The position numbers and the translations under genes are program-made. Below, piece after piece: positions 8,447 to 63,365 of a stretch of 64,000 bases of DNA. The notes beneath the pieces are model-generated. The model had not been told where the DNA came from and made no database searches. It was given only the letters and a program-made list of their open reading frames with translations. Each line of letters starts with the position of its first letter. The stretch's first letter is position 1. Origin of the DNA: a virus. The stretch is taken from IMG/VR virus record IMGVR_UViG_3300042446_001732, positions 1 through 64,000 of that record; one strand, 5' to 3'.

Positions 8447-9088
8447 ATGTCGTCAAAGTATCTAAGAGAAGATCTTACATTTAGCCAGGCTCGCATCGAA
8501 GTCATCACTGAAGACGATGCAGCCAGCGGCGGTAAGAACCTCTATCTCAAAGGTATCTGTATTGAAGGCGACAAGCGTAATGCAAATGAGCGTATCTATC
8601 CTCTGCGAGAAATTTCTCGTGCAGTTGACACTATAAATCAACAAATCCGAGAAGGCAATTCCGTCTTGGGCGAAGTTGATCATCCAGATGATCTCAAGAT
8701 CAATCTAGATCGAGTGTGCCACACTGTTGAAAACATGTGGATGGATGGCCACGCTGGTTGCGGAAAGCTGAAAATTTTGCCCACTCCCATGGGTAACTTG
8801 ATAAAGACTCTGTTGACGTCAGGTGTAAAACTTGGCGTATCCAGCCGCGGTAGCGGCAATGTAGACGACAGAACAGGACATGTAAGTGACTTTGAAATAG
8901 TCACTATAGATGTGGTTGCCCAACCCAGCGCACCAAACGCCTATCCCACAGCTATCTATGAAGGCTTGCTCAACATGAAGCATGGTCATAGAGTGTTGGA
9001 GATGGCTCGCGAGTCTGGTCAAGGCGACAAAGTGCAAAGATACCTGAAAGAGGAAGTAAAACGCCTAATCAGGGATCTTAAAATCTAA
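8447..9088 (+). CDS. gp21: Prohead core protease
   Basis: N.N.R.Y, GEVDHP, LGVSSRGSG, D.VAQPSAPNA motifs. Confidence 0.96.
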   Translation: MSSKYLREDLTFSQARIEVITEDDAASGGKNLYLKGICIEGDKRNANERIYPLREISRAVDTINQQIREGNSVLGEVDHPDDLKINLDRVCHTVENMWMDGHAGCGKLKILPTPMGNLIKTLLTSGVKLGVSSRGSGNVDDRTGHVSDFEIVTIDVVAQPSAPNAYPTAIYEGLLNMKHGHRVLEMARESGQGDKVQRYLKEEVKRLIRDLKI

Positions 9089-18116: not shown

Positions 18117-18172
18117 CGGCCAAACCTAATTGGGCGGATCCTGGTAAATACATCAGATGACCAGGATTACCT

Positions 18173-24100: not shown

Positions 24101-24550
24101 AATACCGGTGGTGTAGTAAGTGCTACTGGCAACGTTGCAGGTGGCAATGTTACAACTGGCGGATTGATCTTAGCTACTGGCAATATTACAGGTAGCAATC
24201 TCAATACAGGTGGATTAGTAAGTGCAACAGGCAACGTTGTTGGTGGTAATGTCAGCACAGGTGGATTAATAACAGCCACTGGCAATATTACTGGTGGCAA
24301 TGTTACAACTAGCGGAATTGCACAAGCACTGACAATAAGCGCAACAGGCAACGTAATTGGTGGCAATGTCAATACAGCGGGGTTAAGTTTAACAGGCAAT
24401 GTGCTGAGTGTGTTGAATTCTACTTCAAATATCAACACCACGGGCAACATCACTGCCAATAATATAACAGGTACAACTAGCATAAGTATTAACGGACAGA
24501 CATTGGCCACAGTCGATGACGCAACTGCCCTGGCAATAGCATTAGGATAA
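18173..24550 (+). CDS. Giant (2125-aa) baseplate-anchored fibre-like repeat protein
   Basis: N-terminal IGAEANDGTGEPLRDAF..VN.NF (T4 gp9/gp10-type motif), then dozens of ATGNITGGN repeats. Confidence 0.75.
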   Translation: MTQQIIDIGAEANDGTGEPLRDAFNAVNENFTEIYTAGPVGSNVVISGNTIAVTGINNNLVLKANGIGNIQANSSIVPSIDAVYNLGSSTLRFNTVNAGFFVGNGSQLTGVTAAAATSIANGTSNVSVASSSNVTINIQNTSNTVVFGRLNSTFSGNILPAANVTYNLGSATAAWKDAYFSNSTIYLNNAGISANATAFSFSTPGGGTTILQGNGVIAPYANSNVTAYLPTYSGNLASLTGPVTTTGNITGAYIIGNGSQLTGLAATYGNSNVAAYLPTYSGNLVSLTGPVTTTGNVGANYFIGNGSQLTGLPATYGNSNVAAYLPTYSGNIGSLTATGNITVVNGIFSGNGSGLTGVIASGNVGAASKLQNGTTEFNIPVANGNVVGNIGGVTNVYTFASTGMSVVGNVTANYLIGNGSQLTGLPASYGNANVVANLAALGSNPVSTTGNVTAGYFVGNGALLTGVAASYGNTEVATLLAAFGSNTISTTGTVTAGNVTGGNLLTAGLISATATITGGNVFTGGLIVATGNVTGGNFVTGGAVSASGNLSAIGNVTGGNITTAGLISATGNVTGGNITTAGLISATGNVTGGNIATAGQITATGNITTTANISGGNLSVSGAFAPASMTATGNVAGGNLTTAGVVSAAGNIITAGYFVGNFAGNITGNLVVPGSNTQVLFNNQGNAGATAGLTFDTAGPNLLAVGGNVQAGNLTTAGLVSAGGNVDAGNLNTAGWVVATGNINTLANVNGANLVASGLITAVGNISGGNLNAAGQVSATGNITGGNILFGIFKLLGTGEAQVGNLTVTNGPGTGNIVAGNIISATGNILTGSNVSATANVIGGNLVTGGLISAAGNITGGNILAGGVGTQISTGGNVNGAAFNGSVYFGTGIVTGTGNVTGGNIAVSGVLLSTNTVSATGNVVGGNINTGGNVSTSGNVIAQDIRVGPGITGGTISALGNITSANTLNAVGLSLSGNVVSALVSAANITTTANISGGFILGNGSLLTGIPASYGNANVVANLAALGSNPIVTTSNITGGNILTSGTITASGNITGSYFLGNGALLSGIAAGTPSKIQNGTSEANIGVSGGNANISIGGTANVVVVATTGIAITGLASASGNITGGNIATGGLVTATGNLNTTAGVLATGNVQGGNVISVALIQGATVSATANVIGGNLNTAGLIAATGNITGGNLNATGLSLSGNVVSALNVTGNVAGGNVNTAGQVSATGNVTGGNIITSGSGGNISGANVILATTLSATANVIGGNVTTAGLITATGNITGANINGNGSGLSALTGANVTGTVANATFATSAGSATTATSATTATTAGTVTTNAQPNITSVGTLTSVNVTGNINGGNVNSTFFGSGAGLTSLTGANVTGTVANATFATSAGSATTAATATTAGTVTTNAQPNITSVGILTSVSVSGNVTGGNLDTAGLITAIGNITGGNINGNGSGLSSITGANVTGTVANATFATSAGSATTAATVTTNAQPNITSVGTLTSVTVTGNVDGGNVSTGGLISATGNITGGNINGNGSGLSSITGANVTGTVANATFATSAGSATTAATVTTAAQPNITSVGTLSSVAVTGNVVGGNLITNSGFVFATGNITGGNILTAALVQGALVSATGNIIGGNVISQDIVQGTSLSASGNVTGGNLTTGGVITATGTITGGNVSTAGLITATGNITGGNLLTGGSITATGGVQTANVNSSGFVTATGNVTGGNIITGGLVTATGNVTGGNVTTGGLVVATGNIAGANIFATGDVSATGNLNATGNVNATNFVGTLVGNIALTGSNSQVLFNLNGVIGSDSGIVYDYIANALTVGGNVSTANGGSLNVSGLISASGNITSVANIAGGNISSSGQIVATANITGGNILTAALVQGATVSATGNVVGGNVSTGGLVTATGNIAGGNVNTGGLVSATGNIAGGNVTTAGAISAIGNINGGNITTGGIAQALTISATGNVIGGNVNTGGVVSATGNVAGGNVTTGGLILATGNITGSNLNTGGLVSATGNVVGGNVSTGGLITATGNITGGNVTTSGIAQALTISATGNVIGGNVNTAGLSLTGNVLSVLNSTSNINTTGNITANNITGTTSISINGQTLATVDDATALAIALG
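19850..19956 (+). repeat. Near-exact 51-bp in-frame tandem duplication
   Basis: AACATTACCACAGCCGGGTTGATCAGCGCAACTGGCAACGTCACAGGTGGC occurs twice in tandem. Confidence 0.9.
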
Positions 24551-24554
24551 ACAA

Positions 24555-24887
24555 ATGGCAAATACATTCACAAGAAAACTCAGCAGAGGAGTTGGAACCA
24601 CAGCAGCAGCTATAGGCAGCTATACCGTGGCTGCCAACACAACTGTTGTGATTGTTGGACTTACAGTGACCAACACATCTGGCAGCGCTATAACTGCCAA
24701 CGTATTCATCTATGATGGTGCGGCCAACACTTCAGTTGTGACCAATGCACCCATCAGTTCAGGTGCAAGTTTGGTGCCAATTGGCGGCGATCAAAAGATT
24801 GTGCTGCTCACAGGTGACTCTCTTCGAGTGCAAAGCAGCGCAGCATCCAGTGTTGATGCTATTTTAAGCATAATGGAAATCACCTAA
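24555..24887 (+). CDS. Small beta-rich virion protein
   Basis: 110-aa ORF inside the fibre operon. Confidence 0.65.
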   Translation: MANTFTRKLSRGVGTTAAAIGSYTVAANTTVVIVGLTVTNTSGSAITANVFIYDGAANTSVVTNAPISSGASLVPIGGDQKIVLLTGDSLRVQSSAASSVDAILSIMEIT

Positions 24888-27800
24888 TGAGCTATATTGG
24901 CATCAACCCTAATACACCGTTACTGAACACAAGTACGCAGTTTTTTAGCGGTAATGGTGCAGTAACGCAATATACCCTGGGTCGTGCTGTGGCATCGGCC
25001 AGTGACCTAGATGTCTTTGTTGGTGCAAATGCACAGGTACCAGGTGTGGATTATGTTGCTGGCAATACCACTATTATTTTTACAGTGGCGCCCGGAGTAG
25101 GCAGTGACAATGTTGCAATTACCTATCGCGGTGGTGCCTTAAACACACTTGACCTAACAGCCACAGTGTTCAATGCAGGATCAGTTGGCAATCCAAGCGT
25201 GTATAGTCTAGCAGCAAACAACACTGGCGTGTACTGGCCCAATGCACAAACCATGGCAGTGACAGTGAGCGGGGCCAATCGTGCCTTGTTCAATGCCACA
25301 GCAACTTCAACCAATTCTACCACTGGTGCCATTACCACTGTGGGCGGCATTGGTGTAGGCGGAAACATCAACACTGGCGGCCAAATCAATGTTGGAAGCA
25401 CAGTTGAAAGTGCAAATATTGCCACAGGCGCTCTTACAGTAAATGGTGGCGCCGGCATTGTCGGCAACTTGAATATTGGCGGCGACATTACCTGTGTGGG
25501 CGACTTTACCGTCAACGGAACTTTTACCACAACAGGCACAGACAGTCTGGACGTGAACGATCCGTTTATCTTTTTGGCCAATGCCAACCCAGGCGACACC
25601 TACGACTCAGGTGTGATTACTCAGTACTACGATGGTGCTAACACTCGATATTCAGGTTACTTTAGAGACGTAACAGATGGCAAGTACAAGCTGTTTGGAA
25701 ACTTGCTGACAGAACCAACCACCACAGTGGACACAGGCAACGTTAGTTTTGCCTACAATGATTTGATACTGGCCAACCTAAGTGCAACAGGCAACGTTAA
25801 CGGCACTTACATTCTTGGCAACGGCGCTTTGTTGTCAGGTATTTCATCTGATCAAAGTCAGATTTTTAGTGGCAACAGCAAAGTAACATTTGCTGGTGTC
25901 AACGGCAATATTATTGCCAATGTCAACAATACCACAATTGCAGTGATATCCAGCACTGGTATAGCAGTTACTGGAGTAGCATCTGGAACAACGCTGAGTG
26001 CTAGTGGCAATATCACTGGTGGTAATTTGATCAGCAACGGATCGCTTACTGCTGTTGGCAACATCAACAGCACTGTTGGCAATCTCAGCATGGGTAATGT
26101 TATTAGTGCAGGTGTAGTTTCAGCAACAAGCAACATTACTGGCGGAAACTTGATCACAGCCGGATTGATCACTGGCGGAAACATTGGCACTGGTGGTATT
26201 GTGACTGCCGCAGGCAATGTAACTGGCGGCAATATTAACACAACTGGCATACTGACTGTGGGATCCACAGTCAGTGCCACAGGTAATATTACAGGTAATT
26301 TCTTCCTGGGCAACGGTAGTCAGCTTACTGGCATTGATGCTACCAGCATCCAAAGTGGCACCAGTAATGTTCGTGTGGTTAGTTCTGGCGGTAATGTTGC
26401 TGTTAGTGTTGGCGGCGTTTCTAACATAGCAGTATTTGACACAACAGGAGAATTTGTAACTGGCTTGATCAGTGTGACTGGCAACGTCACTGGTGGCAAT
26501 ATCATCACCTCTGCACTAATACAAGGTGCTACATTAAGTGCCACTGGCGCAGTTACTTTTAGTACCACAACAGGCACAATTGGTCTTGGAACCAGCCAAA
26601 CAACAGGAACAACCACAATTGGTGGCGCAACACAAACTGGATTTATACAAGTAGGTCGGTCAACGCTGAATCAAGGTATTTTTATTGGCAACGGTGTCAC
26701 AGCATCTGCCAACACAAAAACACTCAGTATTGGTGAAAACGGTGGGGCAGGTTCTACCACAACCATTGGGATTGGTGCCGCATTAGGTGCAGGCTCAGCA
26801 ACATTTAACGCTGCAACTCCTGTAACAATTGCCAACACTGGCGGCAGTGCCCTAAGTGTTGCAGGCAATATCACCGGCGCCAATATTAGCACGTCAGGCG
26901 CAAGTGGCAACATCACTGGTGCCAATGTTGTATCAGCCACCACATTTACTGGCACCACAGTGAGTGCCACAGGCAATGTCACAGGCGGCAATATTATCAC
27001 CGCAGGTGTAGTGATTGCTGCGGCAGGAACTATATCAGCGTCAGGCACCGTCACTGGTGGAAATCTTGTGACCAACGGATTCATCACAGCAGGACAGTAT
27101 GTGTCTGCTACAGGCAACGTCACAGGCGGCAATATCAACACAGCAGGTCTAGTTAGTTCAACAGGCAATATCACAAACGGTATTGCCAACGTGCTGACTG
27201 GAAATGCAATTGTTACCACACTGGTTCAGGCAGCAAGAGTCAGTGCCACAGGCAACGTCAACGCCACTGGAAACATCAGCGGCGGCAATATTGCAATTAC
27301 TGGCAATGCATCAGCGGCCACTGCCGCAGCAGATACCAACACCACTCAACTGGCCACCACAGCATATGTAATTGGTCAAGCCAGTGCCACTACTCCAACC
27401 AGTATTGGAACAAACACTGTTGGAACCAGCACAAGATATGCCAGAGCAGATCACACGCACACTGGTGTAACCAGTGTCAACGGATCATCGGGCGCTGTTA
27501 CTGGCATTGCTACCACTGCTGGTAATCTGGCACAATTTGCTGCCACCACAAGTTCACAACTAGCCGGTGTTATTTCAGACGAAACCGGCACAGGTAACCT
27601 GGTATTTGCCAATACTCCAACTCTGGTCACTCCTGTAATTGGCGCAGCAACAGGTACAAGTTTGAGTGTCAGTGGCAACGTGACCACTGCTGGTATTGCC
27701 CTGGGTACTGGCAATCTTGTGGGCGGCAATATAACTGCAACCCATTTTGGATCAGGTGCAGGACTAACCTCACTTACTGGTGCCAACGTCACTGGCACTG

Positions 27801-28546
27801 TGGCCAGCGCGACCACAGCTGGTACAGTGACCACAGCAGCTCAGGGAAATATCACCAGTGTTGGTACACTGACTACACTAACAGTCAGTGGTACAATTAC
27901 AGGCAGCGATATAACCACTTCTAGAGCAGCCGCCCCGACCCAAGGTTACTACTATTTTGGAAACACAAATGCAAAATACATTGGGTACGATGGTTCTCAA
28001 TTTATAATAGTTGGGATGGGCACAGTTAGTACTAACAATACTAACCTCACAGTTGGAACAGCCACAGTCACACTGGGCAACATCACAAACGCCAACGGCA
28101 ACGGTGTTGGCAACATTGGTGCCACTGGCGGGTTTTTCAACACAGTATTTGCCAAAGCAACATCAGCACAATACGCTGACTTGGCAGAAAATTACTCAGC
28201 TGATGCTGACTACGCTCCGGGAACTGTGTTGAGTTTTGGTGGCACATACGAAGTCACCTTGTCAACTGAGTCAGCAGATTCAAGAGTGGCGGGCATAGTA
28301 TCTACTCATCCTGCACACTTGATGAACAGCACCCTCGAAGCTGAACATGTGGCTGCCTTGGCCTTGACAGGTCGAGTGCCTGCACTGGTTGTGGGCACTG
28401 TCCGCAAGGGTGATATGATGGTATCAGCAGGCAACGGTCATGCACAGGCCTGTGCTACACCTGCCATGGGCACAGTGATTGGCAAAGCATTGGAAAACTT
28501 TGATGGCAGTCAAGGCATCATTGAAATTGTTGTAGGAAGAATGTAA
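24887..28546 (+). CDS. Tail fibre-like repeat protein with a C-terminal chaperone-like domain
   Basis: Same repeat family and YADLAE C-terminal domain as 15096..18116. Confidence 0.75.
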   Translation: MSYIGINPNTPLLNTSTQFFSGNGAVTQYTLGRAVASASDLDVFVGANAQVPGVDYVAGNTTIIFTVAPGVGSDNVAITYRGGALNTLDLTATVFNAGSVGNPSVYSLAANNTGVYWPNAQTMAVTVSGANRALFNATATSTNSTTGAITTVGGIGVGGNINTGGQINVGSTVESANIATGALTVNGGAGIVGNLNIGGDITCVGDFTVNGTFTTTGTDSLDVNDPFIFLANANPGDTYDSGVITQYYDGANTRYSGYFRDVTDGKYKLFGNLLTEPTTTVDTGNVSFAYNDLILANLSATGNVNGTYILGNGALLSGISSDQSQIFSGNSKVTFAGVNGNIIANVNNTTIAVISSTGIAVTGVASGTTLSASGNITGGNLISNGSLTAVGNINSTVGNLSMGNVISAGVVSATSNITGGNLITAGLITGGNIGTGGIVTAAGNVTGGNINTTGILTVGSTVSATGNITGNFFLGNGSQLTGIDATSIQSGTSNVRVVSSGGNVAVSVGGVSNIAVFDTTGEFVTGLISVTGNVTGGNIITSALIQGATLSATGAVTFSTTTGTIGLGTSQTTGTTTIGGATQTGFIQVGRSTLNQGIFIGNGVTASANTKTLSIGENGGAGSTTTIGIGAALGAGSATFNAATPVTIANTGGSALSVAGNITGANISTSGASGNITGANVVSATTFTGTTVSATGNVTGGNIITAGVVIAAAGTISASGTVTGGNLVTNGFITAGQYVSATGNVTGGNINTAGLVSSTGNITNGIANVLTGNAIVTTLVQAARVSATGNVNATGNISGGNIAITGNASAATAAADTNTTQLATTAYVIGQASATTPTSIGTNTVGTSTRYARADHTHTGVTSVNGSSGAVTGIATTAGNLAQFAATTSSQLAGVISDETGTGNLVFANTPTLVTPVIGAATGTSLSVSGNVTTAGIALGTGNLVGGNITATHFGSGAGLTSLTGANVTGTVASATTAGTVTTAAQGNITSVGTLTTLTVSGTITGSDITTSRAAAPTQGYYYFGNTNAKYIGYDGSQFIIVGMGTVSTNNTNLTVGTATVTLGNITNANGNGVGNIGATGGFFNTVFAKATSAQYADLAENYSADADYAPGTVLSFGGTYEVTLSTESADSRVAGIVSTHPAHLMNSTLEAEHVAALALTGRVPALVVGTVRKGDMMVSAGNGHAQACATPAMGTVIGKALENFDGSQGIIEIVVGRM

Positions 28547-52220: not shown

Positions 52221-52549
52221 TGCCTCAAGCAAATGTATACACAAGTGCATCGGCACAGGCCTGGTTCACAGACAAGGCTCGCATCAGCACTGGCAGTAAC
52301 ACTGTGACGTTTCAGGTTGAAGCGGTACAATTGACCTATCAGAATCCAGGCACAGGCAACTGGGCCAATGCAGGCACAGCGGTAGGCAACATCTACAGCA
52401 ATGCTGTCGCAATTCCGGCAAACAGTCGTCAAGACATCTATGTTGGCGTGGGCAACAAGCTCACAATAGCAGGCGGCAACGTTACTATTCAAGAACTTGG
52501 CACAGCCAGTTCTGCTACCGCTGGCGAGAATGGCATAGGCAACGGCTAA
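52220..52549 (+). CDS. Small beta-rich protein, probably virion-associated
   Basis: Coupled ORF in the late cluster. Confidence 0.6.
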   Translation: MPQANVYTSASAQAWFTDKARISTGSNTVTFQVEAVQLTYQNPGTGNWANAGTAVGNIYSNAVAIPANSRQDIYVGVGNKLTIAGGNVTIQELGTASSATAGENGIGNG

Positions 52550-52920
52550 TGCGAGCCAATGAGTTCATTGCAGAAGCCCATATTGGCCAGATTAGCAAAC
52601 GCAATCAAAACGCCACAGTGGGGCTGAACAAGTTTCGTGATCAGAAATTTGCTGATCGTGTGTATGAACTCAATCGTATCATGATGGCTGTGGCATCAAC
52701 TGATGGCACCTTTGTGCCTGATGTTGATGGTGAATCATGGGCAGGTCGCAACAATATTGCTGTGCCATACACCAAAGAAGAACAAAACATGCTGGCAAAA
52801 GCATTCCAAGCTGTGGGCAGTCATCACGAAGACATGAATCACGGTGATTTAAAATCTGCAGAGCATCCGGCTGTGAACACTATTAGCCCCATGCAGTCAT
52901 TCAAGGGCTATCCGCGATGA
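52549..52920 (+). CDS. Putative internal head protein (paralogue A)
   Basis: Begins MRANEFIAE; ends SP...F.GYPR. Confidence 0.6.
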   Translation: MRANEFIAEAHIGQISKRNQNATVGLNKFRDQKFADRVYELNRIMMAVASTDGTFVPDVDGESWAGRNNIAVPYTKEEQNMLAKAFQAVGSHHEDMNHGDLKSAEHPAVNTISPMQSFKGYPR

Positions 52921-53303
52921 GAGCCCGTGAATTCCTTAAAGAAGAAACAACGTTGCCTCCTGAACAAGGAGATCCAATGAATCATGTGTTTACCTTGCCT
53001 GGAGTAAAGTCTAGTGATCCGTACCAAATCTATAGACTGGGCGTAGCAATAGCCCGTGCTCGCAGCGATGCTGGCACAGATGGTATCACTGACAAATTAC
53101 CCAACTGGTCAGCACAAGCCGCTTTTGGTGAAGATGCTGTGATTGCTGGATTCAACGACAGTGCTGGTCCAGCAATTGACTATGCATTAAAAATGGCCGG
53201 CCTGCCTGTTAAAAAAGTTCAGATAAGTACTCCAAACAGCCTAGAGCCCGCCCTGGTAAATCGTCAAAGCCCTGTTAACGCCTTTGCTGGCTACCCTCGC
53301 TAA
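52917..53303 (+). CDS. Putative internal head protein (paralogue B)
   Basis: Begins MRAREFLKE; ends SP...F.GYPR. Confidence 0.6.
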   Translation: MRAREFLKEETTLPPEQGDPMNHVFTLPGVKSSDPYQIYRLGVAIARARSDAGTDGITDKLPNWSAQAAFGEDAVIAGFNDSAGPAIDYALKMAGLPVKKVQISTPNSLEPALVNRQSPVNAFAGYPR

Positions 53304-53957: not shown

Positions 53958-55355
53958 ATGGCCAATCCACCACCACCATACGACAACATTACCGGCATTT
54001 CACGTGCCGCAATGAAGGACAACGCCCAAGTTACCTTGGCCGAATACGACGGAAATGCCAGACCAGGTGAACTAGTAGTAGATCAAACCACAAGCATTGT
54101 GTATGTGGGCAACGCTCTAGGCGACCTAACAGCAGTAGCCACACCAGGTGGCGCAACAACCTGGGCACTGTTAAGCAACAAAGATGGTGCCGCAGGACCC
54201 ACTATCATAGCCCTGGGCCAAAATGCTGGGTTTGACGGTCAGGCCAATGCTGCCATAGCCCTGGGTGAGGCAGCCGGTGCGGGAGGCCAAAATTCAGCAG
54301 CAATTGCAATTGGACAAAATGCCGGGGCCAACACCACCCAAGGCTCGAGTGCTGTGGCCATTGGTGTCTCAACTGGATTTGATGCTCAAGGCCAGTACGG
54401 CGTGGCTATTGGTGCATTTACTGCAACAACTTTGCAAGGTGCTCGATCAGTGGCCATTGGACTCAGTAGTGGCCAAACCACACAAGGCACTGACGCTGTG
54501 GCCATAGGTCAATATGCTGGCAACGAAGTACAAAGCGTCTCAGCAGTGGCCATTGGTAACAATGCTGGTTATACTGGTCAAGGCATAAGTTCTGTGGCCA
54601 TTGGCCAAGGTGCTGGTTTGACCAATCAAGGTAATCAAAGTGTTGCAATTGGACAAAATGCTGGCGCCACCCAAGGATCAACAGCAGTGGCAATTGGTCA
54701 AAATGCCGGTGGCGGCGTTGCTTTGCAAGGTGATGACGCAGTGGCCATTGGCCACGGTGCAGGCGAAAATACGCAAGGTACTCAATCAGTTGCCATTGGA
54801 TTATACGCTGGCCAAAACACACAAGGTCAGTTAGCAGTGGCCATTGGTACCAATGCTGGCAATACCAGCCAGGGCAATAGTGCAGTAGCCATTGGTGATA
54901 ATGCTGGAATTGACAATCAGGGCGATCAGAGCGTGGCCATAGGCCAGCAGTCTGGCAATACCAATCAAGGCCCCCAGTCAGTGGCCATTGGTACCCAGGC
55001 CGGTTTCACTGGGCAGGGTGTGCTTGCTGTGGCCATTGGCATCCAGTCTGGTTATGACACACAGGGTGATAATTCGGTAGCCATTGGCCGCAATGCTGGT
55101 TATGTCACACAAGGTGCCAATGCAGTGGCCATTGGTAGCAAGGCCGGACCAAGCAGTCAAGCCAGCAACTCAATCATCATAAATGCCACTGGTAACAACC
55201 TGAATCAAACCACAGCCAACACATTCACAGTGAAACCTGTGCGAGCAGTGACCAGTGTGACTTTTGCCGCACCCACATCAGGATCAATACCTGCAGGATT
55301 CTCACCCATGTACTACAATCCCACCACAGGTGAGATTATTGTGATCACAACTTAA
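53958..55355 (+). CDS. Adhesin-like fibre with YadA-head-type repeats
   Basis: About 20 tandem ~15-aa QG..AVAIG..AG repeats. Confidence 0.75.
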   Translation: MANPPPPYDNITGISRAAMKDNAQVTLAEYDGNARPGELVVDQTTSIVYVGNALGDLTAVATPGGATTWALLSNKDGAAGPTIIALGQNAGFDGQANAAIALGEAAGAGGQNSAAIAIGQNAGANTTQGSSAVAIGVSTGFDAQGQYGVAIGAFTATTLQGARSVAIGLSSGQTTQGTDAVAIGQYAGNEVQSVSAVAIGNNAGYTGQGISSVAIGQGAGLTNQGNQSVAIGQNAGATQGSTAVAIGQNAGGGVALQGDDAVAIGHGAGENTQGTQSVAIGLYAGQNTQGQLAVAIGTNAGNTSQGNSAVAIGDNAGIDNQGDQSVAIGQQSGNTNQGPQSVAIGTQAGFTGQGVLAVAIGIQSGYDTQGDNSVAIGRNAGYVTQGANAVAIGSKAGPSSQASNSIIINATGNNLNQTTANTFTVKPVRAVTSVTFAAPTSGSIPAGFSPMYYNPTTGEIIVITT

Positions 55356-55363
55356 AATTTAAC

Positions 55364-55801
55364 ATGAAAAAATTACTTGCACTCTTGCTGATCGTGCCTG
55401 TGCTGGCTGTTGCACAACCCCGACAACGACCGGGCGTGACCTATGACGCTGTGATCACCAGAGTCATAGACGGTGACACTGTGGCTTTTCAGGCAGACTT
55501 TTTGCCTGCGCCACTCAAAAAAGAACTATCAATCAGAGTGTACGGTGTGGACACTCCTGAAAAAGGATTCCGTGCCCAATGCCCTAGTGAAGCACAGCGT
55601 GGAGAAGCAGCCACAGCATTTACCAAAGCTCAAATCAACGCTGCAACTAAGCGTCAAATCGTACTCATGGACTGGGACAAGTATGGTGGTCGTGTGCTGG
55701 GTGATGTGCTGTTAAACGGACAAAGCCTGCGTGGCATGCTGATACAAAATGGTTTTGCTCGTGAATACTACGGCGAAGCCAAAACATCCTGGTGCCAATG
55801 A
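55364..55801 (+). CDS. Thermonuclease (SNase-like) with a signal peptide
   Basis: VIDGDT, IRVYGVDTPE, DKYGGRVLG; MKK-hydrophobic-AVA leader. Confidence 0.92.
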   Translation: MKKLLALLLIVPVLAVAQPRQRPGVTYDAVITRVIDGDTVAFQADFLPAPLKKELSIRVYGVDTPEKGFRAQCPSEAQRGEAATAFTKAQINAATKRQIVLMDWDKYGGRVLGDVLLNGQSLRGMLIQNGFAREYYGEAKTSWCQ

Positions 55802-55819
55802 TCCGCCTGTAAATACAGG

Positions 55820-56962
55820 ATGACGAATTTTTACTGTGCAGCCCCTTGGCGTGGCCTGCATATCAATCCCCGAGGCGATGTAAAAACCTGTTGTGCTGGC
55901 GACCCCAACATGCTGGGCAATTTAAACACACAGACCATCGAACAGATCCTCAACAGTGATTTGATGACAGAAATTCGTGGCAGCATTGCCCAGGGCCAAA
56001 GTCATCAGTACTGTTCAAACTGTGTGCAAGCCGAGCGCCATGGCGGTGACTCCGAACGAGCCTGGCACAACCGTGACAATCCCAATTTTGATTTTGCCAA
56101 GGCCGGTGACAAATATCACTATCCAGTCATTGTTGATATTCGTTGGAACACCACTTGTAATCTAAGTTGCAACTATTGTATGGAATATTGCAGTTCAAAA
56201 TGGGCCGCGTTGAAAGGTATTCCTGTCAAGTCTGGTACTAGACCCTACTACGAACAAGTGTGTGATTTCATCGAGCAACATTATGAACACATTCACGAAG
56301 TGGCACTGGTAGGCGGCGAGCCGTTGTTGCTGCCAGAAAATAATCGCTTGCTGGACGTGATACCTAAAGATGCAGTTGTTACCTTGATTACCAATCTTAC
56401 CGGCGATCTTGAAAACAATCGAATATTTCAAAAACTAGCAAAACGAAATCGTGTTGGCTGGAGTATGAGCTTTGACAACATAGGCCCAAGATTAGAATAT
56501 GTTCGCTATGGCGCTGGTTGGGAAGAAATACAACGCAACCTTGCCCTGGTCAAAAATCTAATGACCACACAGGGACACTCAGGCGGCATACATGCAGTGT
56601 ACAACATATACAATGCCACACGCATCTGTGAACTGCGTGAGTTTGCCAAACAGACTGGAACCACTGTGCTATGGCAGAATCTTTTTCAACCCGACTACCT
56701 TGATCCATTCTTGCATGGTCCAACAGTTGCTGCCGAAGCAATTGCTGAGATTGAGCGCTTTTATGCATCAGGCATTGCTACCGCTGCTGAACGGGTGTTC
56801 TTTGACCGTGCATTGCAGAGCTATCGTTCAGTGACCCACCCACGGCCCAATATTGAACATCAGTTTGCACAGCATATTCAACAGATTGAAAATCAGTACC
56901 ACCCAGACTCAAAAGGACAGTTTACAAGTTTGTGGCCTGAACTAGCAACACTATGCAAATAA
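55820..56962 (+). CDS. Radical SAM protein with an N-terminal SPASM/twitch-like domain
   Basis: C..PW...G.V..CC...C..C, then CNLSCNYC and GGEP. Confidence 0.9.
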   Translation: MTNFYCAAPWRGLHINPRGDVKTCCAGDPNMLGNLNTQTIEQILNSDLMTEIRGSIAQGQSHQYCSNCVQAERHGGDSERAWHNRDNPNFDFAKAGDKYHYPVIVDIRWNTTCNLSCNYCMEYCSSKWAALKGIPVKSGTRPYYEQVCDFIEQHYEHIHEVALVGGEPLLLPENNRLLDVIPKDAVVTLITNLTGDLENNRIFQKLAKRNRVGWSMSFDNIGPRLEYVRYGAGWEEIQRNLALVKNLMTTQGHSGGIHAVYNIYNATRICELREFAKQTGTTVLWQNLFQPDYLDPFLHGPTVAAEAIAEIERFYASGIATAAERVFFDRALQSYRSVTHPRPNIEHQFAQHIQQIENQYHPDSKGQFTSLWPELATLCK

Positions 56963-57708
56963 CAACACCTTGGCATTTTGGAATACCGTATGCTGGCTAT
57001 ACCTCTGAATGGTTGCCCACAGACACCAAAGAAAATTTTCAACGGCTCATGCAAGAGCCCAAGCATCAAGAGTATTTTGGCAGCAAAGGGTGGGACCAGC
57101 CTGGTGCAATCACCTACAAAATAAACAGTCACGGATTTAGATCAGAAGAATTTGATCCTGCTGCGCCTAGTATAGTGTCATTGGGTTGCAGTTATACCAT
57201 TGGTATTGGCCTACCTGAACATGCTACCTGGTCACACCTGGTCGCGCAAGCCACAGGATTAAAAAACTACAATCTGGCCTGGGCTGGTACCAGTGCAGAC
57301 ACATGCTTTATGCAGGCGCAGTATTGGTTGCCTATATTGCGTCCTAAACTGGTGGTAATGGTGGCCCCTCCCAAACACAGATTTGATTTGATTTCAGAAG
57401 ATCCTACACTGCCACATGACACATACATGTCTTCGGGCGGATCGTGTGAATCATATCGTGACAATTTTGTCAAAACTTGGCTGCTGAATGATCGTAACGC
57501 AGAGTTAAATAGCTCACGTAATCGATGGGCAGTGCAAGGATTATGTGCTAACCTGGGCATTGCATGTTTGACCTACGATGCACATGAATGGTTTGCCAAG
57601 AGTCGTGAAGAATTAGAATACGCAAGAGACCACATGCACGCCGGCCCCCGTGGGCATCAGCTACTAGCAGAAAGAATCATAAATGATTGGCGCAAAAAAC
57701 ACACTTGA
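56953..57708 (+). CDS. SGNH/GDSL-like hypothetical protein
   Basis: NSHGFR, LGCSYT.G.G, NL...G, ARD..H.G..GH motifs. Confidence 0.55.
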   Translation: MQITTPWHFGIPYAGYTSEWLPTDTKENFQRLMQEPKHQEYFGSKGWDQPGAITYKINSHGFRSEEFDPAAPSIVSLGCSYTIGIGLPEHATWSHLVAQATGLKNYNLAWAGTSADTCFMQAQYWLPILRPKLVVMVAPPKHRFDLISEDPTLPHDTYMSSGGSCESYRDNFVKTWLLNDRNAELNSSRNRWAVQGLCANLGIACLTYDAHEWFAKSREELEYARDHMHAGPRGHQLLAERIINDWRKKHT

Positions 57709-59272
57709 TACGGTACTTGTAAAAGCACCTCATCGTAGAGAAACATATTCTGAGTCTGAGCTTGAAGATTTTGCCAAATGTGCAGATCCAGTCACAGGAC
57801 CCATGCACTTTATGGACAACTTCTTTTACATCCAACATCCCACACGCGGCAAGATGTTGTACCATCCTTTTGAATATCAAACAAGACTGATCAACAACTA
57901 TCATACCAATAGATTTTCAATTTCTCTAATGCCTCGACAAACAGGCAAGAGCACAAGTGCTGCGGGTTACTTGTTATGGTATGCTATGTTTGTACCGGAC
58001 GCAACCATTCTGATAGCAGCACACAAGTACCTGGGCGCACAAGAAATCATGCAGCGTATTCGTTATGCATATGAATTGTGTCCCAATCATATCAGAGCAG
58101 GCGCCACCAGTTACAACAAAGGCAGCCTGGAGTTTGACAACGGATCACGTATTGTGAGTCAGACCACAACTGAGAACACTGGTCGCGGTATGAGTATTAC
58201 GCTGTTGTACCTAGACGAGTTTGCATTTGTGAGACCCAGCATTGCCAAAGAGTTTTGGACGTCAATCACACCCACACTGAGTACTGGTGGTAAAGCTATT
58301 ATTACTTCAACTCCAAACTCAGACGAAGATCAATTTGCCTACATCTGGAAAGGTGCCTTAAAGACTCAAGATGAGTTTGGAAATCAACGAGCCAACGGCC
58401 TGGGCATCAACGGTTTCAAAGCATTTCGTGCATTCTGGCGTGAGCACCCAGACCGAGACGAAGTCTGGGCAGAGGAACAACGATCCCAGCTGGGCGAAGA
58501 ACGTTTTCGTCGAGAAATGGATTGCGATTTTGTTATCAACGACGAAACACTAATATCGCCGCTGAAACTGCTGGAACTGGAAGGCATTGAACCCACTCAC
58601 AAGTCTGGACAAGTACGCTGGTACAAACCCATACTCAAAGACAAAATGTATATTGTTGCACTGGATCCCAGCTTGGGCACAGGCAGCGATCCCGCAGCTA
58701 TACAAGTATTTGAAGCAGACACCACTGAGCAAGTGGCAGAGTGGCGCCACAACAAAACTGATGTGCCCACACAAGTTAAAATTCTAGCAGATATTGTGAA
58801 AGAAATACATGCAGTGACCAAAGACAACAAAAGCATTTATTATTCCGTGGAAAACAACACACTTGGCGAAGCAGCACTGATCAGCATCAACGAGTACGGA
58901 GAAGAGAATATTCCAGGTTATTTCCTAAGCGACAACAGTGTGCAGGGCAGCAGCGGCCGTAGAATCCGCAAGGGATTTACCACCACCAACAAAAGCAAGA
59001 TCAGTGCTTGTAGCAAACTGAAAATCCTGATAGAATCTGGCCGTATGAAGATCTACAGCAAACCCTTGCTGACCGAACTCAAAAGTTTTGTGGCCAACGG
59101 CACTAGTTATGCAGCCAAACCAGGCGAAACAGACGATCTTGTGATGGCCAGTTTACTGATCACACGCATGCTGATGCTGCTGCAAACCTATCATTCTGAC
59201 CTGGACTCGCACCTTAAAGATCATTCGGACAACGTGATTGAACCGTTGCCGTTCATCAGCATCATGCGCTAA
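57683..59272 (+). CDS. gp17: Terminase large subunit
   Basis: PRQTGKS Walker A, LYLDEFAF Walker B, ITSTP, nuclease D-P and DD motifs. Confidence 0.97.
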   Translation: MIGAKNTLDTVLVKAPHRRETYSESELEDFAKCADPVTGPMHFMDNFFYIQHPTRGKMLYHPFEYQTRLINNYHTNRFSISLMPRQTGKSTSAAGYLLWYAMFVPDATILIAAHKYLGAQEIMQRIRYAYELCPNHIRAGATSYNKGSLEFDNGSRIVSQTTTENTGRGMSITLLYLDEFAFVRPSIAKEFWTSITPTLSTGGKAIITSTPNSDEDQFAYIWKGALKTQDEFGNQRANGLGINGFKAFRAFWREHPDRDEVWAEEQRSQLGEERFRREMDCDFVINDETLISPLKLLELEGIEPTHKSGQVRWYKPILKDKMYIVALDPSLGTGSDPAAIQVFEADTTEQVAEWRHNKTDVPTQVKILADIVKEIHAVTKDNKSIYYSVENNTLGEAALISINEYGEENIPGYFLSDNSVQGSSGRRIRKGFTTTNKSKISACSKLKILIESGRMKIYSKPLLTELKSFVANGTSYAAKPGETDDLVMASLLITRMLMLLQTYHSDLDSHLKDHSDNVIEPLPFISIMR

Positions 59273-59282
59273 ATACACTATC

Positions 59283-62189
59283 ATGGCACAAGAACAGAAT
59301 ATTTCAACACAGCTCGATAACCTACTGGTCACTCGTAATTTCGCTCCAGAAATGCTGGATCGACAGGGCAAACCGTCTGAATCAGAAGACGCCAAAACAT
59401 TTACATTTGACTATGTGAGCGGCAGCGGCAAGAACTATGGCACCATGGTTGTTATTCTAGACTCTGAAAACGACATGAAAGTGTTTTACGGTGACAATCT
59501 GGGCAGAGCCATGGAAGGCGACGACAAAGACGAGTTCTTTGACTTTCAGCAACATCTCAGCAAGTTTGCTAGAATGCATCGTTGGACCTATACGGCCAAA
59601 GACCTAAACCAACTCAAACATACCATGCAAGGGCTTGCAGCCATACAAGAAGGCCTGTTTGAAGGCTACTATGGTACACGCAAAATCAGTTATGCTGGTG
59701 AACCCACCGAAGCTCGACTCATGATCAAACACAACCGCACACTGGGCGAAGCTGATGCACGTTTTCGCTATGTGGAAAGTTTGTTTATTGAAACTGCTGA
59801 TAGCCAACGATTTCGATTGCCTTTCAAGAATCTAGCTGGTGGTCGTGCCATGTTGGAACATGTGCGTCAAGGTGGCAATCCTTATGATGTGCGTGGTGTA
59901 CACATTGCTGAAATGGTCATGGAAATTGCCACACTGAGTCGTTTTAACCGTGCCAGTGCCAGTCGCATGCTAGAAGGCACTACAAAAGAATTGGTTACCG
60001 AAGCACAGACCTACTACAAAAGTTTGCGTGAAAATATCAAACGCATGGCCAGCCCTCGTGGCTATAGTGCATATTTTGAAACTTGGCATCCTGCCACCAT
60101 TGACGAACAACAAGATCTGGTAGAAGATATCAAAACACTGTTCATTGAACAGACCCTGGACACACGAATTGAGGCAGCACTGCCGCTGTTGGCCAGAATA
60201 CAACAACAAGGAAACGCTATGAAAGAAGCACAAATTTTTGAAAACTGGATCAACAGCCTAACCGAAGGCACCTGGAGTTTGCCCGAAACACCAGAACAAT
60301 TGAACAAACTCAAAGAACTCATGGCCACAGAACTCATTGTGGGACCTGATGCTACCAATGCCACAGAACAACTGTATGACTTGATAGGTGATGATATCTT
60401 GTTTGATCGACTGAGCGAGTTAGCTGACAGAGATCCCAGAGCCAATGTCTGGAATGACACTGAAGTAATGGATCGTATACGTGAACTAGGCATTGAAACA
60501 GAAACACAAGCACCTGCTGGTGCTGAGGGCGATGCAGCACCAATTGATACTGCCGCTGCACCAGCACCTGCGCCACAACAACCAGTGGCAGAAGGTCAAG
60601 GTGCCACTACCTACACTGTTGCTTACAAAGACCCCACCAAGCCAGGCAAATCACACAGCACTCAAGTCAAAGCCACCAGCGCAGCAGAAGCAAAAGCAGC
60701 GTTTCAAGAATGGGACACCACAAATCGATTCACTTACTTGGGTTCCAGACCCGATGTTGATACAGTTCGTGAAGGTGTAGCAGAAGCCGCAGAACTCAAC
60801 ACCATGTTGAAGTACGCTGGTGTGCCTGTGGCTGAAAGCCGAGTGCTGGACGAATCAGGAGAAACACTCACCCACATCCTGGATCGTTTCAAACACGAAG
60901 TTGCACAATTTGAGCAAGGTGCTGATCTTGATGACAATCTTTACGATGCACTGTATGATTACTATTCAGACAAAGGCGAAATTCCATATGGCATTGCCAA
61001 AGCTCGCACAGGTGATCCATACGAATGGATAACTAATCGCCTGGATCAAGAACTTGGCATCAATGAAAGCAACTCAGGCATGATCATGCCCGAAGCTGAT
61101 CCAATCTCTACATTTGAAGTCATGAGCGGATTCGCCGCTCCAGTAGCCGAAGGTTCGTGCAACAGCACCATGGAGGGCGAATACTGCCCAGAACACGGGC
61201 TAATGGAATGCGGCATGTACGAAATGGGCACTGTGGCAGGCGGCATGGCTCCTGTTGTAGGCGAAGGCAACGATGATCCAATCAACTACAACGGCGCCAT
61301 CACTGGCAGCTACTACGAAGGCAAACAGGATCCTTTGGTAAGACTAAAATCTTTGGCCAAGATAAAAGAAGGATGGAAAGGCGAGCTTGCTGGCGGAACA
61401 CTAGGTGGTGTGGGCGGAAGCGTTGCTGGTTCGGCATTGGGCGCACTTGCTGGCGGCCCAGTTGGCGCAGCAATCGGCGGAGTAGTTGGCGGTGCCGCAG
61501 GCGGTACTGGTGGTGCCATGATTGGTCGCGAAATGACCAAAGAAGAACAATTACATGAAATTGCTCCGTTAGTAGCAGCAGGTGCAAGAGCCATTATACC
61601 TTTGTTGGCCAAAGTTGGTCCCAAACTGGGTCGTATGGCATCTGGTGCAGGCAAATCTGGAGCAGAAGTTGCTGGAAAAGCAGCCACAGGCATTGGCCGC
61701 GGCACAGTAGACGTTGCCAAATCTGCTGCACAATCTGCTGCACAAAATGCAGATAAAATTGGGCTCGGGTTAGGTGCATACCAAGCCATCACTGATGTAG
61801 CAAACAATACAATGGGTGGCGTTGGCGAAGTGTACCGAGACATTGGTCAAGCCGCTGATGCAATTACACAAACAGTGGGCAATGCAATTGACGGAAAAAC
61901 TATTGCCGAACTGGCAGGAACCGCAGTAAAATATTCAATTCCAATTGGTATATTGCTAGCGGTGTTGTACGGCGGCAAAAAACTCATTGACCAATTGATG
62001 TCCGAAGACGCAGCAGATACTGGCATGGCCCTTGGCGGAATTGCAGGTGGATTAACCGGAGGACCTTTAGGGGCAGGTGCTGGAGTGCAAGCAGGCGGAG
62101 CAATAGGATCTTTAGTTGACGCTAACAAGAAAACATTCGAAGGCGATGCCATGCTGGCCAGAATAAAATCTCTGGCTCTGCTCAAGTAA
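59283..62189 (+). CDS. Large modular protein with glycine-zipper segments; putative processed head protein
   Basis: Start reassigned to ATG 59283, 7 nt after TAAATA; many xxE-G/S/A sites; GxxxG tracts. Confidence 0.65.
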   Translation: MAQEQNISTQLDNLLVTRNFAPEMLDRQGKPSESEDAKTFTFDYVSGSGKNYGTMVVILDSENDMKVFYGDNLGRAMEGDDKDEFFDFQQHLSKFARMHRWTYTAKDLNQLKHTMQGLAAIQEGLFEGYYGTRKISYAGEPTEARLMIKHNRTLGEADARFRYVESLFIETADSQRFRLPFKNLAGGRAMLEHVRQGGNPYDVRGVHIAEMVMEIATLSRFNRASASRMLEGTTKELVTEAQTYYKSLRENIKRMASPRGYSAYFETWHPATIDEQQDLVEDIKTLFIEQTLDTRIEAALPLLARIQQQGNAMKEAQIFENWINSLTEGTWSLPETPEQLNKLKELMATELIVGPDATNATEQLYDLIGDDILFDRLSELADRDPRANVWNDTEVMDRIRELGIETETQAPAGAEGDAAPIDTAAAPAPAPQQPVAEGQGATTYTVAYKDPTKPGKSHSTQVKATSAAEAKAAFQEWDTTNRFTYLGSRPDVDTVREGVAEAAELNTMLKYAGVPVAESRVLDESGETLTHILDRFKHEVAQFEQGADLDDNLYDALYDYYSDKGEIPYGIAKARTGDPYEWITNRLDQELGINESNSGMIMPEADPISTFEVMSGFAAPVAEGSCNSTMEGEYCPEHGLMECGMYEMGTVAGGMAPVVGEGNDDPINYNGAITGSYYEGKQDPLVRLKSLAKIKEGWKGELAGGTLGGVGGSVAGSALGALAGGPVGAAIGGVVGGAAGGTGGAMIGREMTKEEQLHEIAPLVAAGARAIIPLLAKVGPKLGRMASGAGKSGAEVAGKAATGIGRGTVDVAKSAAQSAAQNADKIGLGLGAYQAITDVANNTMGGVGEVYRDIGQAADAITQTVGNAIDGKTIAELAGTAVKYSIPIGILLAVLYGGKKLIDQLMSEDAADTGMALGGIAGGLTGGPLGAGAGVQAGGAIGSLVDANKKTFEGDAMLARIKSLALLK

Positions 62190-62191
62190 CA

Positions 62192-62372
62192 TAAATAAAA
62201 CAAAGAAGGGCGTGTAGTGGCATGCCCTTCCGTAAACAACTAGATAGGCAAAGTTCACTGCCGTTAGTGGTAGGAAACACAGACAGGCTGTGTTAAAATA
62301 ACCTTGTAGGCAGCATTTAAGCAAGTCTTAAATTTTTAAAATCATATTAACGCACAAGAAAGGCAACACAAT
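62192..62372 (+). promoter_or_regulatory. Structured 5' leader of gene 32
   Basis: TAAATA at 62192, four hairpins (62205-30, 62247-62, 62276-94, 62315-33), then an AT-rich tract. Confidence 0.55.
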
Positions 62373-63365
62373 ATGGCATCCTTAGCAGAAATTCGTGCCC
62401 GTTTACAGGCATCAGAGAACAAAGGTTCTAACAACACAGGCGGTGGCGACAAGTCAATTTACCCGCACTGGAACATGGAAGAAGGCCAAGCAGCCACACT
62501 ACGCTTCCTCCCCGACGGCAACAGCAAAAACACATTCTTTTGGGCAGAACGAGCAATGATTCGACTGCCATTCAATGGTGTCAAAGGCGAGATGGATTCA
62601 AAACAAGTCATGGTTCAGGTACCATGCGTTGAGATGTGGGGCGATGCTTGCCCAATCCTAGCAGAAGTACGCACCTGGTTCAAGGACAAGAGTCTGGAAG
62701 ACATGGGTCGCAAGTACTGGAAAAAGCGCAGCTACATCATGCAGGGTTTTGTGCGTGAAAACCCCATTGGTGACGACAAAACTCCGGACAATCCTATTCG
62801 CAAGTTTATCATTGGCCCTCAGTTGTTTACCCTGATCAAGAGCGCACTGATGGACCCAGAACTGGAAGAATTGCCAACTGACACCTTGCGTGGCCTGGAC
62901 TTCCGCATTGCCAAGACCCAAAAGGGTGGTTACGCAGACTACAACACCAGCAAATGGGCTCGCAAAGAATCGGCCTTGACTGAAACTGAGCAAGCAGCCG
63001 TCGATGCACACGGCTTGTTTGACTTGAGCACATTCTTGCCCAAGAAACCTGGCGATGTTGAGCTCCGAGTAATCAAGGAAATGTTTGAAGCAAGTGTAGA
63101 CGGTCAGCCCTACGACACAGAGCGTTGGGGTCAGTATTTCCGTCCTGCTGGTGTTAATGCACCCAGTGGCGCTGCTGCCAACAACGACGACGCAGAAGCA
63201 GCACCTGCTGCTCGCACTACGCCTGCGGCAAAACCTGCTGCATCTAGCCCTGCCTGGGAAGATGACGCAGCAGAAGCAGCAGCTTCCTTGGTCACTAAAC
63301 CAGCTGGCGGCAATCAAAAGGCCGAAGACATCCTTGCGATGATTCGCGCACGTCAAGCCAAATAA
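62373..63365 (+). CDS. gp32: Single-stranded DNA-binding protein
   Basis: LRFLP, C..CP, K.W.K.SY, G.DF...K...GGY..Y..SKW pattern; directly upstream of uvsX. Confidence 0.85.
   Translation: MASLAEIRARLQASENKGSNNTGGGDKSIYPHWNMEEGQAATLRFLPDGNSKNTFFWAERAMIRLPFNGVKGEMDSKQVMVQVPCVEMWGDACPILAEVRTWFKDKSLEDMGRKYWKKRSYIMQGFVRENPIGDDKTPDNPIRKFIIGPQLFTLIKSALMDPELEELPTDTLRGLDFRIAKTQKGGYADYNTSKWARKESALTETEQAAVDAHGLFDLSTFLPKKPGDVELRVIKEMFEASVDGQPYDTERWGQYFRPAGVNAPSGAAANNDDAEAAPAARTTPAAKPAASSPAWEDDAAEAAASLVTKPAGGNQKAEDILAMIRARQAK

Follow-up and report, generated by a model that had tools for sequence, protein, structure and literature searches.

The question raised by this locus is why a phage protein should carry twice the motif in which its relatives end, with a long glycine-rich stretch between the two copies. 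The window analysed here is the stretch of 64,000 nucleotides at positions 1-64,000 of IMG/VR virus record IMGVR_UViG_3300042446_001732, the first 64 kb of a 98,313-base record with a completeness estimate of 29%, and it therefore derives from a jumbo phage of roughly 340 kb; by its gene content, the source is a fragment of an uncultured T4-type jumbo phage. The protein is P0001, encoded directly behind the large terminase gene (TerL). Our answer is that one conserved, laterally exchanged module, here called the cassette, has very probably been fused in frame behind the ancestral C-terminus of P0001, making the region modular, fused and under selection. From sequence comparison its parts are a zipper beginning GWKGE, a fossil start and leader (MIGREMTKEEQLHE), a body (residues 760-908) and another zipper, behind which the C-terminal tag stands a second time. 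An earlier note had interpreted the region as a set of peptide cassettes; the comparisons point instead to a single conserved module made of a zipper, a formerly stand-alone leader-tagged gene and a scaffold-like tag copy. The features of the gene are as follows.

59283-62189, + strand: post-terminase gene P0001, 968 amino acids, ATG at 59283, flanked by TerL and the single-stranded DNA-binding protein gene (SSB)

59283-60527, + strand: conserved N-terminal carrier domain (N-domain), residues 1-415; match to phrog_13484 'virion structural protein' (E 3.3e-08) over residues 122-266

61143-61223, + strand: Cys box, ..EGSCNxTxEGEYCPEHGLxECG.. (C626, C635, H638, C643), from invariant alignment columns

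61317-61358, + strand: first, internal motif copy EGKQDPLVRLKSLA, residues 679-692, where the relatives P0006 and L086 end

61359-62177, + strand: in-frame insertion of 819 nucleotides (273 codons) relative to L086, from blastn and a three-way DNA alignment

61371-61559, + strand: glycine zipper 1, GWKGELAGG..AMIGREMTKEEQLHE, residues 697-759, with IKE (694-696) before it and LHE (757-759) at its end

61518-61559, + strand: putative relic start and leader, M-I-G-R-E-M-T-K-E-E-Q-L-H-E, residues 746-759, aligning with stand-alone N-termini

61560-62006, + strand: core module, residues 760-908, the portion common to distant matches

62007-62138, + strand: glycine zipper 2, residues 909-952, with a glycine fraction of at least 0.33 over 905-951

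62139-62189, + strand: second, terminal motif copy EGDAMLARIKSLALLK and stop

The motif was found at both places named in the earlier note, at 61317-61358 and at the true C-terminus, where EGDAMLARIKSLA (residues 953-965) is followed by LLK and the stop. That note had also raised the prospect of relatives ending at the first RLKSLA motif, and two such alleles, both 97% identical, exist. The protein P0006 (695 amino acids) ends in ..EGKQDPLIRLKSLALLK, precisely at the first motif copy, and so does the protein encoded at IMG/VR locus L086, the stop lying three codons past the motif in both. At the DNA level L086 matches the window to 61352 and resumes at 62160 (blastn: window 61317-61352 against L086 4873-4908 and window 62160-62996 against L086 4897-5731, each at 94%). 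Both motif copies of the window align to the single L086 motif, with 819 nucleotides between the copies. They lie in a direct repeat (D10, 61336-61357 against 62155-62176, 82% identical over 22 nucleotides, spacing 819), and the limits of the insertion are ambiguous within an imperfect repeat of ~17 nucleotides. On this comparison the first motif copy would mark where the ancestral protein ended.

Among the 8,000 candidates scored in a search of 5.8 billion proteins, 1,933 are relatives at E <= 0.001; counts out of 119 refer to the 119 relatives listed. A further 523 relatives were found in IMG/VR, and counts of loci rest on the best 80 of these 523. The pattern [RK][ILMV]K[SKEN]L[AS] falls within the last 12 residues of 117 of the 119 relatives, with endings such as ..ARIKSLAL[LI]K or ..RLKSLALIK, and for this reason the recurrence of the motif in P0001 is not due to chance; it also closes 75 of the 78 complete genes among the IMG/VR loci. 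Recent tandem duplication was considered as the origin of the second copy and rejected, since the two copies are merely 82% identical over the 22 nucleotides and differ in dialect (EGKQDPLVRLKSLA against EGDAMLARIKSLA), both being terminal forms in relatives. The most fitting interpretation is that each copy marks the end of one of two tag-bearing units that have been fused. Among the listed relatives the order motif-cassette-motif recurs only in P0007, whose N-domain is 98% identical; P0087 has a second motif match by regular expression, without a cassette.

The earlier note's insertion of ~270 residues is upheld as an in-frame event, of 273 residues relative to L086, but other genes have it too, the cassette being carried by 10-11 of the 119 relatives, mostly at another site, straight after the Cys box. 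In most carriers it directly follows that box (..CPEHGLMECGGMYE/GWK.., the slash here and below marking a junction or candidate cleavage point), and in nine of the ten listed relatives with a GWK start it adjoins either the Cys box or a further Gly-rich stretch (..MYE/GWK, ..TTE/GWK). It is more strongly conserved than the chain carrying it. The cassette of P0129 is 77% identical while its N-domain is ~30% identical over 241 residues; P0016 has values of 86% and 69%, and the cassettes of P0126, P0127 and P0129 together span 77-87%, against ~30% for the N-domain where it matched (in P0127 over 54 residues). A motif copy stands directly before ..E/GWKGE in 9 of 37 GWK-bearing proteins (a count made by eye; a regular expression flagged five), in three dialects, and the tag-cassette-tag order therefore arose or spread repeatedly. 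Internal and terminal dialects agree within each of these nine proteins, P0126, for example, having EGQEDLDTIKRLLG at both positions. Compared with locus L160, the ratio of nonsynonymous to synonymous substitution rates (dN/dS) is 0.10 over the cassette, 0.07 in zipper 1 and 0.11 in the core, which indicates purifying selection.

The record is metagenome-derived and mis-joining could also yield flanking repeats, as would be expected if the region were an assembly chimera or a decaying, functionless insertion. We regard this as extremely improbable: the exact P0001 protein stands for eight member sequences on two contigs, P0007 has the same motif-cassette-motif order with a different middle and comes from another source, and the frame is open across 273 codons with the low dN/dS given above.

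The cassette (residues 693-952) matches 137 protein clusters at E <= 1e-3 and 61 at E <= 1e-10 (phmmer, 1.84 billion representatives). No match was found in 50,697 GenBank phages, Pfam or PHROGs, none in cultured phages by tblastn at E <= 1, and no further copy in the same 98-kb record. The stretch shared with distant matches covers residues ~748-912 (query 56-220 of P0125), and the core also occurs as stand-alone genes of 150-230 residues with two hydrophobic helices. Residues 746-759 of P0001 (MIGREMTKEEQLHE/IAPL) align column for column with the N-termini of these stand-alone homologues, which start MRAYEIITEDQQLNE/F, MRASEFIKEEQQLNE/F and MKVNEVVNESQQLNE/W, with the pattern M[KR]x..E[IF]..E..QQLNE/. 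The T4 leaders in NC_000866 read MKTYQEFIAE/A (IPII, IPIII) and MKTFKEF..ITE/A (IPI). A leader-like start is present in 38 of the 137 cassette matches, as against none of the 119 carrier-family proteins. Residues 746-908 are read as a once separate, leader-tagged gene for head cargo that now lies inside a larger chain. The bases 5' of Met 746 are Gly codons (..GGTGGTGCC ATG) and are undecisive for an internal translation start.

In T4, cleavage by gp21 takes place behind the Glu of an L/I-X-E triplet, and proteins are directed to the core by the leader; the ten N-terminal residues of IPIII are enough for loading, Alt undergoes processing at its two termini, and an Asp at the last leader position stops processing but not targeting (PMC9026906). 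The leader may let T4-like phages pack diverse proteins (PMC9026906, PMC3012670). The comparison supports LHE/I as a candidate prohead-protease site, and the IKE and LHE boundaries both fit the gp21 rule. In alignment A2 (22 sequences) the conservation of Glu 759 of LHE is at least 90%, and the residue before GWK is Glu in all but one of the 37 GWK-bearing proteins (36 of 37), the remaining protein beginning eight residues before the motif. Leaders of the T4 type also occur elsewhere in the window, at the start of two adjacent open reading frames (ORFs) found by a regular-expression scan.

52549-52920, + strand: ORF of 123 amino acids with a T4-type capsid-targeting leader, MRANEFIAE/A..

52917-53303, + strand: ORF of 128 amino acids with a T4-type capsid-targeting leader, MRAREFLKE/E..

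These were the sole matches in the whole 98-kb record; they are near-copies of the IPII/IPIII leader and the proteins are likely to be head-internal. Their presence suggests that this phage loads proteins by means of leaders. Stand-alone core genes neighbour leader-bearing genes close to TerL (L009, L017, L030, L034). Fusions of the core in other phages join it to an NMNAT-like nucleotidyltransferase (cytidyltransferase), to Acb1, which acts against the cyclic oligonucleotide-based antiphage signalling system (anti-CBASS), or to DUF6321. These fusion proteins (P0224, P0221, P0212, P0172, P0180) look like protease-jointed cargo chains.

The cassette is 22% Gly and 18.5% Ala, and its 260 residues hold 27 overlapping GxxxG motifs, against five in the other 692 residues of the protein. 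The elements described in the earlier note are present: the 63-residue GxxxG zipper between IKE and LHE (697-759, 61371-61559), the cationic amphipathic segment IAPLVAAGARAIIPLLAKVGPKLGR (760-784; hydrophobic moment 0.59 over 767-784, strongly amphipathic), the hydrophobic helix YSIPIGILLAVLYGG (884-898) and a second zipper at ~909-951. Zipper 2 varies among relatives, is missing in P0028 and P0038, and was modelled with low confidence. Within the core the hydrophobic/amphipathic helix IAPLVAAGARAIIPLLAKVGPKLGR comes first; a variable part rich in Ala and Lys and then a helical unit follow, and the hydrophobic helix ..KYSIPIGILLAVLYGGKKLIDQLMSE closes the module. The Kyte-Doolittle mean exceeds 1.6 in two 19-residue windows, 760-778 (1.69) and 877-895 (1.76), which by hydropathy are segments of transmembrane strength. 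Y896, G898 and K899 are invariant in alignment A2.

For residues 675-968, AlphaFold2 with 62 aligned sequences predicts helix throughout, at a mean pLDDT (predicted local distance difference test) of 61.8 and with confident positions only at ~845-909 (pLDDT 85-97); an invariant segment folding as a soluble domain was not seen. Modelling supports a cassette that is hydrophobic and helical, with no confident soluble globular domain. The ESM Atlas returned unnamed viral clusters only, with scores of 0.82 or less, and its own model had a pLDDT of 0.42. By sequence (phmmer) the only solved relative was SlyB (7ojf, E 0.24), and zipper 1 matched PF13488 (Gly-zipper_Omp) over residues 708-752 at 16.6 bits and E 0.0076, under the 25-bit cut-off.

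One reading of these properties is that P0001 would be an uncleaved pilot or ejection protein, delivered as the entire 968-residue chain, with the cassette as its envelope-active C-terminal membrane-insertion domain and the Glu joints as mere module seams. PHROG matches confined to the zipper and cassette name tape measure proteins and a tail-associated lysin (phrog_167 2.6e-07, phrog_1047 4.9e-06), and zippers near the C-terminus recur in the core-less family members L093, L109, L119 and L133; a C-terminal LysM domain in the L017 orthologue, described below, points the same way. The type VI secretion effector Tde1 needs a glycine zipper for membrane translocation, and tape measure proteins have similar zippers in their C-terminal regions (PMC10240207). 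We nevertheless consider this rather unlikely. It gives no reason for the conservation of QL[NDH]E or for the fossil Met and leader in front of the core, the gene lies between TerL and SSB, away from the tail genes, and the lengths of its relatives, 571-1391 residues across the best 80 IMG/VR loci, are unfit for a length-determining tape measure. P0001 as the tape measure protein itself was rejected on the same gene position and length spread, and with its PHROG tape-measure match limited to residues 494-753 (2.6e-07).

The stand-alone forms, with their two hydrophobic helices in 150-230 residues, could also be taken for a self-standing membrane effector, a superinfection-exclusion, depolarizing or holin-like protein for which capsid loading is only the delivery route; this corresponds to the toxin-like cargo proposed in the earlier note. 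Fold searches with VIA-align gave resemblances to channel-forming hairpins, hepatitis C virus p7 (Z 4.7) and TIM23 (Z 5.0, the best), but every fold match lay under the noise level of the tool for helical models. No endolysin, spanin or other lysis gene was recognised beside the stand-alone forms in the 14 loci read, the neighbours there being unscanned by family libraries. An effector of this kind seems to us very improbable.

What might bring P0001 into the head is suggested by the scaffolding protein of the same phage, which is encoded in a T4-type head module.

5541-7307: portal (phrog_213, 1.4e-106)

7641-8438: acidic protein, part of the T4-type head module

8447-9085, + strand: gp21-like prohead protease (phrog_207 head maturation protease, 1.3e-55)

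9101-10189, + strand: gp22-like scaffolding protein, coiled-coil, between the gp21-like protease and the gp23-like major capsid protein (MCP)

10212-11405, + strand: gp23-like MCP (phrog_138, 5.7e-98; PF07068 Gp23)

The scaffold ends in ..NVIDLKRLAGL, the same motif class as the C-terminus of P0001. The pattern [ILMV][KR].[LIM][ASL][GL][LIMV] occurs in two of the 104 ORFs of the 98-kb record, the scaffold and P0001, at the extreme C-terminus of both; in shuffled proteins its mean was 0.035, with a maximum of one in 200 rounds. Homologues of the scaffold are annotated as scaffolding protein in phages 121Q, BF, Muenster and Munch, and related endings are ..IDIKRLAGLN and ..VDIKRLAGLN (two IMG/VR records), ..DELRRLAGIK (Cassandra) and ..LKELDVLSGINKK (121Q). 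This C-terminal signature (L167, L168, L169, L170) thus persists in uncultured relatives as well as in cultured ones (Cassandra, ..ELRRLAGIK; 121Q, ..LDVLSGINKK). Scaffolds of this family may bind the shell or core by this end, and from its sharing with P0001 we infer that the tag could address proteins to the prohead interior. Proteins of 66-72 residues with the motif class at the N-terminus (MDELDRMKLLAGIGN.., MDIERLKQLAGVNE..) were seen at L009:6458-6658, L027:3519-3737 and L012:3656-3862, without a Pfam match.

A tag common to the scaffold would also suit a membrane tether for proheads in the producing cell, with the helices sitting in the inner membrane, the tag or leader holding the core or scaffold, and cleavage freeing the matured head while the helices stay behind. 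T4 proheads are described as assembling on the membrane and detaching after gp21 maturation (PMC9026906), and in the stand-alone homologues a hydrophobic helix lies immediately behind the leader. However, the cassette is optional (10-11 of the 119 relatives), and its core's fusion to Acb1 and to an NMNAT-like transferase in other phages better fits delivered cargo; we regard a tether as decidedly improbable.

The mechanism that we put forward combines scaffold-like loading by the tag, cuts after IKE and LHE, and delivery of the hydrophobic pieces to the host membrane. Resting on sequence features, it is the best supported of the readings compared here and in our judgement quite possible, although we stop short of calling it probable. 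During prohead assembly the tag would dock P0001 in the interior, the role assumed for the C-terminus of the scaffold itself. A gp21-like protease would then cut after Glu at I-K-E696, L-H-E759 and perhaps M-S-E908, yielding a carrier ending in the tag-like ..RLKSLAKIKE, a 63-residue zipper peptide and a two-helix protein of ~150 residues; with a cut after the Glu before GWK, the upstream part would again end in a tag-like sequence. The hydrophobic pieces would remain in the head, exit with the DNA and insert in the host inner membrane, where they might help the passage of DNA or cargo or otherwise act on the envelope. A role at the envelope is consistent with the two segments of transmembrane strength, with matches to the Pfam glycine zipper family at E <= 0.01 in 14 of 41 family members, with the LysM domain of the L017 orthologue and with the zippers of Tde1 and tape measure proteins noted above.

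Several observations weigh against this mechanism. The carrier has no N-terminal leader: P0001 starts MAQEQNIS, and none of the 119 listed relatives fits the leader pattern. Among the GWK-bearing proteins P3 is often neither L nor I (MYE, TTE, FKE, VAE), and QLNE is followed by bulky I, F or W, unlike the Ala after the T4 sites compared; moreover, P0001 contains 19 [LI]xE triplets, so that such a triplet by itself carries little weight. The terminal tag motif is missing from the end of T4 gp22, and T4 gp68 (..LKRRKALGLS) bears a weak likeness to it. The cassette model is poor, at the mean pLDDT given above, and fold searches gave noise-level helical hairpins. Judged by its presence in 10-11 of the 119 relatives and, as the core, in one (L160) of the 80 best loci, the cassette is dispensable. 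Literature outside subscription journals yielded no paper on a glycine zipper with bacteriophage ejection and capsid and, in the portions accessible, nothing on this motif or cassette in connection with scaffold C-terminus, jumbo phage or prohead protease.

Compared with known systems, the arrangement is like that of T4 IPI, IPII, IPIII and Alt in that the protease, scaffold and MCP of the phage are gp21-like, gp22-like and gp23-like, respectively, and in that the stand-alone core homologues begin with a T4-like leader and an L-x-E site. It differs in that the leader of P0001 is internal, apparently left over from a fusion, and in that a scaffold-like tag at the C-terminus presumably serves as the address. 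The internal proteins of T4 are small, soluble and basic, whereas the cassette cargo of P0001 is hydrophobic. Capsid-binding peptides of the scaffold type are found at the C-terminus of P22 gp8, the 80alpha scaffold and SaPI1 CpmB, and encapsulin cargo has loading peptides. By analogy, the P0001 tag would be a similar short C-terminal helix common to a scaffold and another shell-entering protein, although it has no sequence relation to these peptides. Tde1 and the tape measure zippers have in common with P0001 the GxxxG runs over a hydrophobic segment in a protein delivered, or here presumably delivered, by a contractile injection machine (PMC10240207); there is no detectable homology, and the P0001 gene is outside the tail module and not of tape-measure type.

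Head-internal ejected proteins offer a further likeness, being carried in the head, partly processed by the prohead protease and leaving with the DNA (accessible parts of PMC12810830, PMC7411985, PMC5694885 and PMC8954989). DarA-Hdf of P1 lies on the inner capsid surface and is absent after DNA exit (PMC12810830), and ejection proteins are described in SPN3US and phiKZ (PMC7411985, PMC5694885) and in podoviruses (PMC8954989). No sequence or fold relation of these to P0001 was found; a weak P22_gp7 match (E 0.0081) occurred in a protein of another locus, and the T7 8e4g chain gave Z 4.6, within noise.

The gene that carries the cassette is itself variable. Similarity to 27 cultured jumbo phages is confined to residues ~120-310 (tblastn, 27-33% identity). 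The N-domain was modelled by AlphaFold2 with a mean pLDDT of 72.7 and gave nothing at E <= 0.001 in the Foldseek PDB search (best E 0.059), no solved fold by VIA-align (best Z 6.5) and, in BFVD, matches solely to uncharacterised phage proteins. One of the latter (E 9.5e-20) is named 'Large polyvalent protein-associated domain-containing protein', a domain absent from a Pfam scan of 41 family members. The Cys box residues, spaced C-x8-C-x2-H-x4-C, are invariant in alignments of 10 and of 40 family members and make the box a possible metal (zinc) knuckle. Enzyme cargo in the long variants was ruled out by a Pfam scan of 24 relatives of 804-1391 residues, which found glycine zippers and one weak DUF only. 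Across its 120 best clusters the MCP keeps an identity of 97-100%, against a mosaic middle and the wide length range in the post-terminase gene; on these comparisons the gene is hypervariable within an otherwise very uniform phage population. A distant orthologue at L017:8987-11383 (N-domain identity 26%) has, in place of the tag, a C-terminal LysM peptidoglycan-binding domain that scores above the Pfam cut-off, and at the same locus the core module is also present as a separate 151-residue gene upstream of TerL.

The genes flanking P0001 are assigned as follows.

57683-59272: TerL, large terminase (PF03237 4.9e-15; phrog_36964 7.7e-117)

62373-63365: gp32-like SSB (phrog_1192, 6.1e-63)

A second open start for P0001 is an upstream TTG at 59238, and a UvsX gene lies beyond SSB in the window, which also holds sheath and tube genes. 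GAP32, PA5oct and a Vibrio jumbo phage show this same order of TerL, P0001-type gene, SSB and UvsX, with counterparts of 429-496 residues; that of GAP32 (GAP32_270) is annotated 'virion structural protein' and that of PA5oct (gp278) bears an electrospray ionization tandem mass spectrometry (ESI-MS/MS) note. These counterparts share gene position and homology over residues ~120-310 with P0001 but have no Cys box, no cassette and no clear terminal tag. Portal, a guess from the position behind TerL, was rejected as the identity of P0001 since the portal is encoded at 5541-7307. Other genes in the window include, at 53958-57708 (+ strand, from the structural genes to TerL), those for a 465-residue protein with YadA-head-like repeats, for a homologue of staphylococcal nuclease whose start is signal-like, for a radical SAM/SPASM protein and for a GDSL-like hydrolase, the last a weak assignment. 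At 15096-28546 (+ strand) lie three very large ORFs, of 1006, 2125 and 1219 residues, which have Gly-rich periodic stretches (GNISGGNISAAG..) and are probably fibre or decoration proteins.

How contractile-tailed phages pass DNA and co-injected protein across the inner membrane, and how giant phages select the contents of their heads, are still poorly understood. The locus offers a natural pair of 97%-identical alleles with and without the cassette, and its fossil leader and Glu-bounded joints predict exact cleavage products. The core is a protein family new to Pfam, PHROGs and 50,697 GenBank phage records, yet it is present in at least 137 environmental phage protein clusters, some of them fused to the anti-defence protein Acb1. 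In a wider extension, which we think improbable as it stands, jumbo phages with gp22/gp23-type heads might possess, beside the N-terminal leader, a second address system in which a copy of the scaffold tail peptide loads exchangeable, protease-jointed membrane modules, the cassette of GWKGE zipper and QLNE core forming or gating an inner-membrane passage for DNA and co-injected cargo. The C-terminal tag of 10-16 residues that P0001 has in common with the scaffold is a candidate loading signal for foreign proteins.

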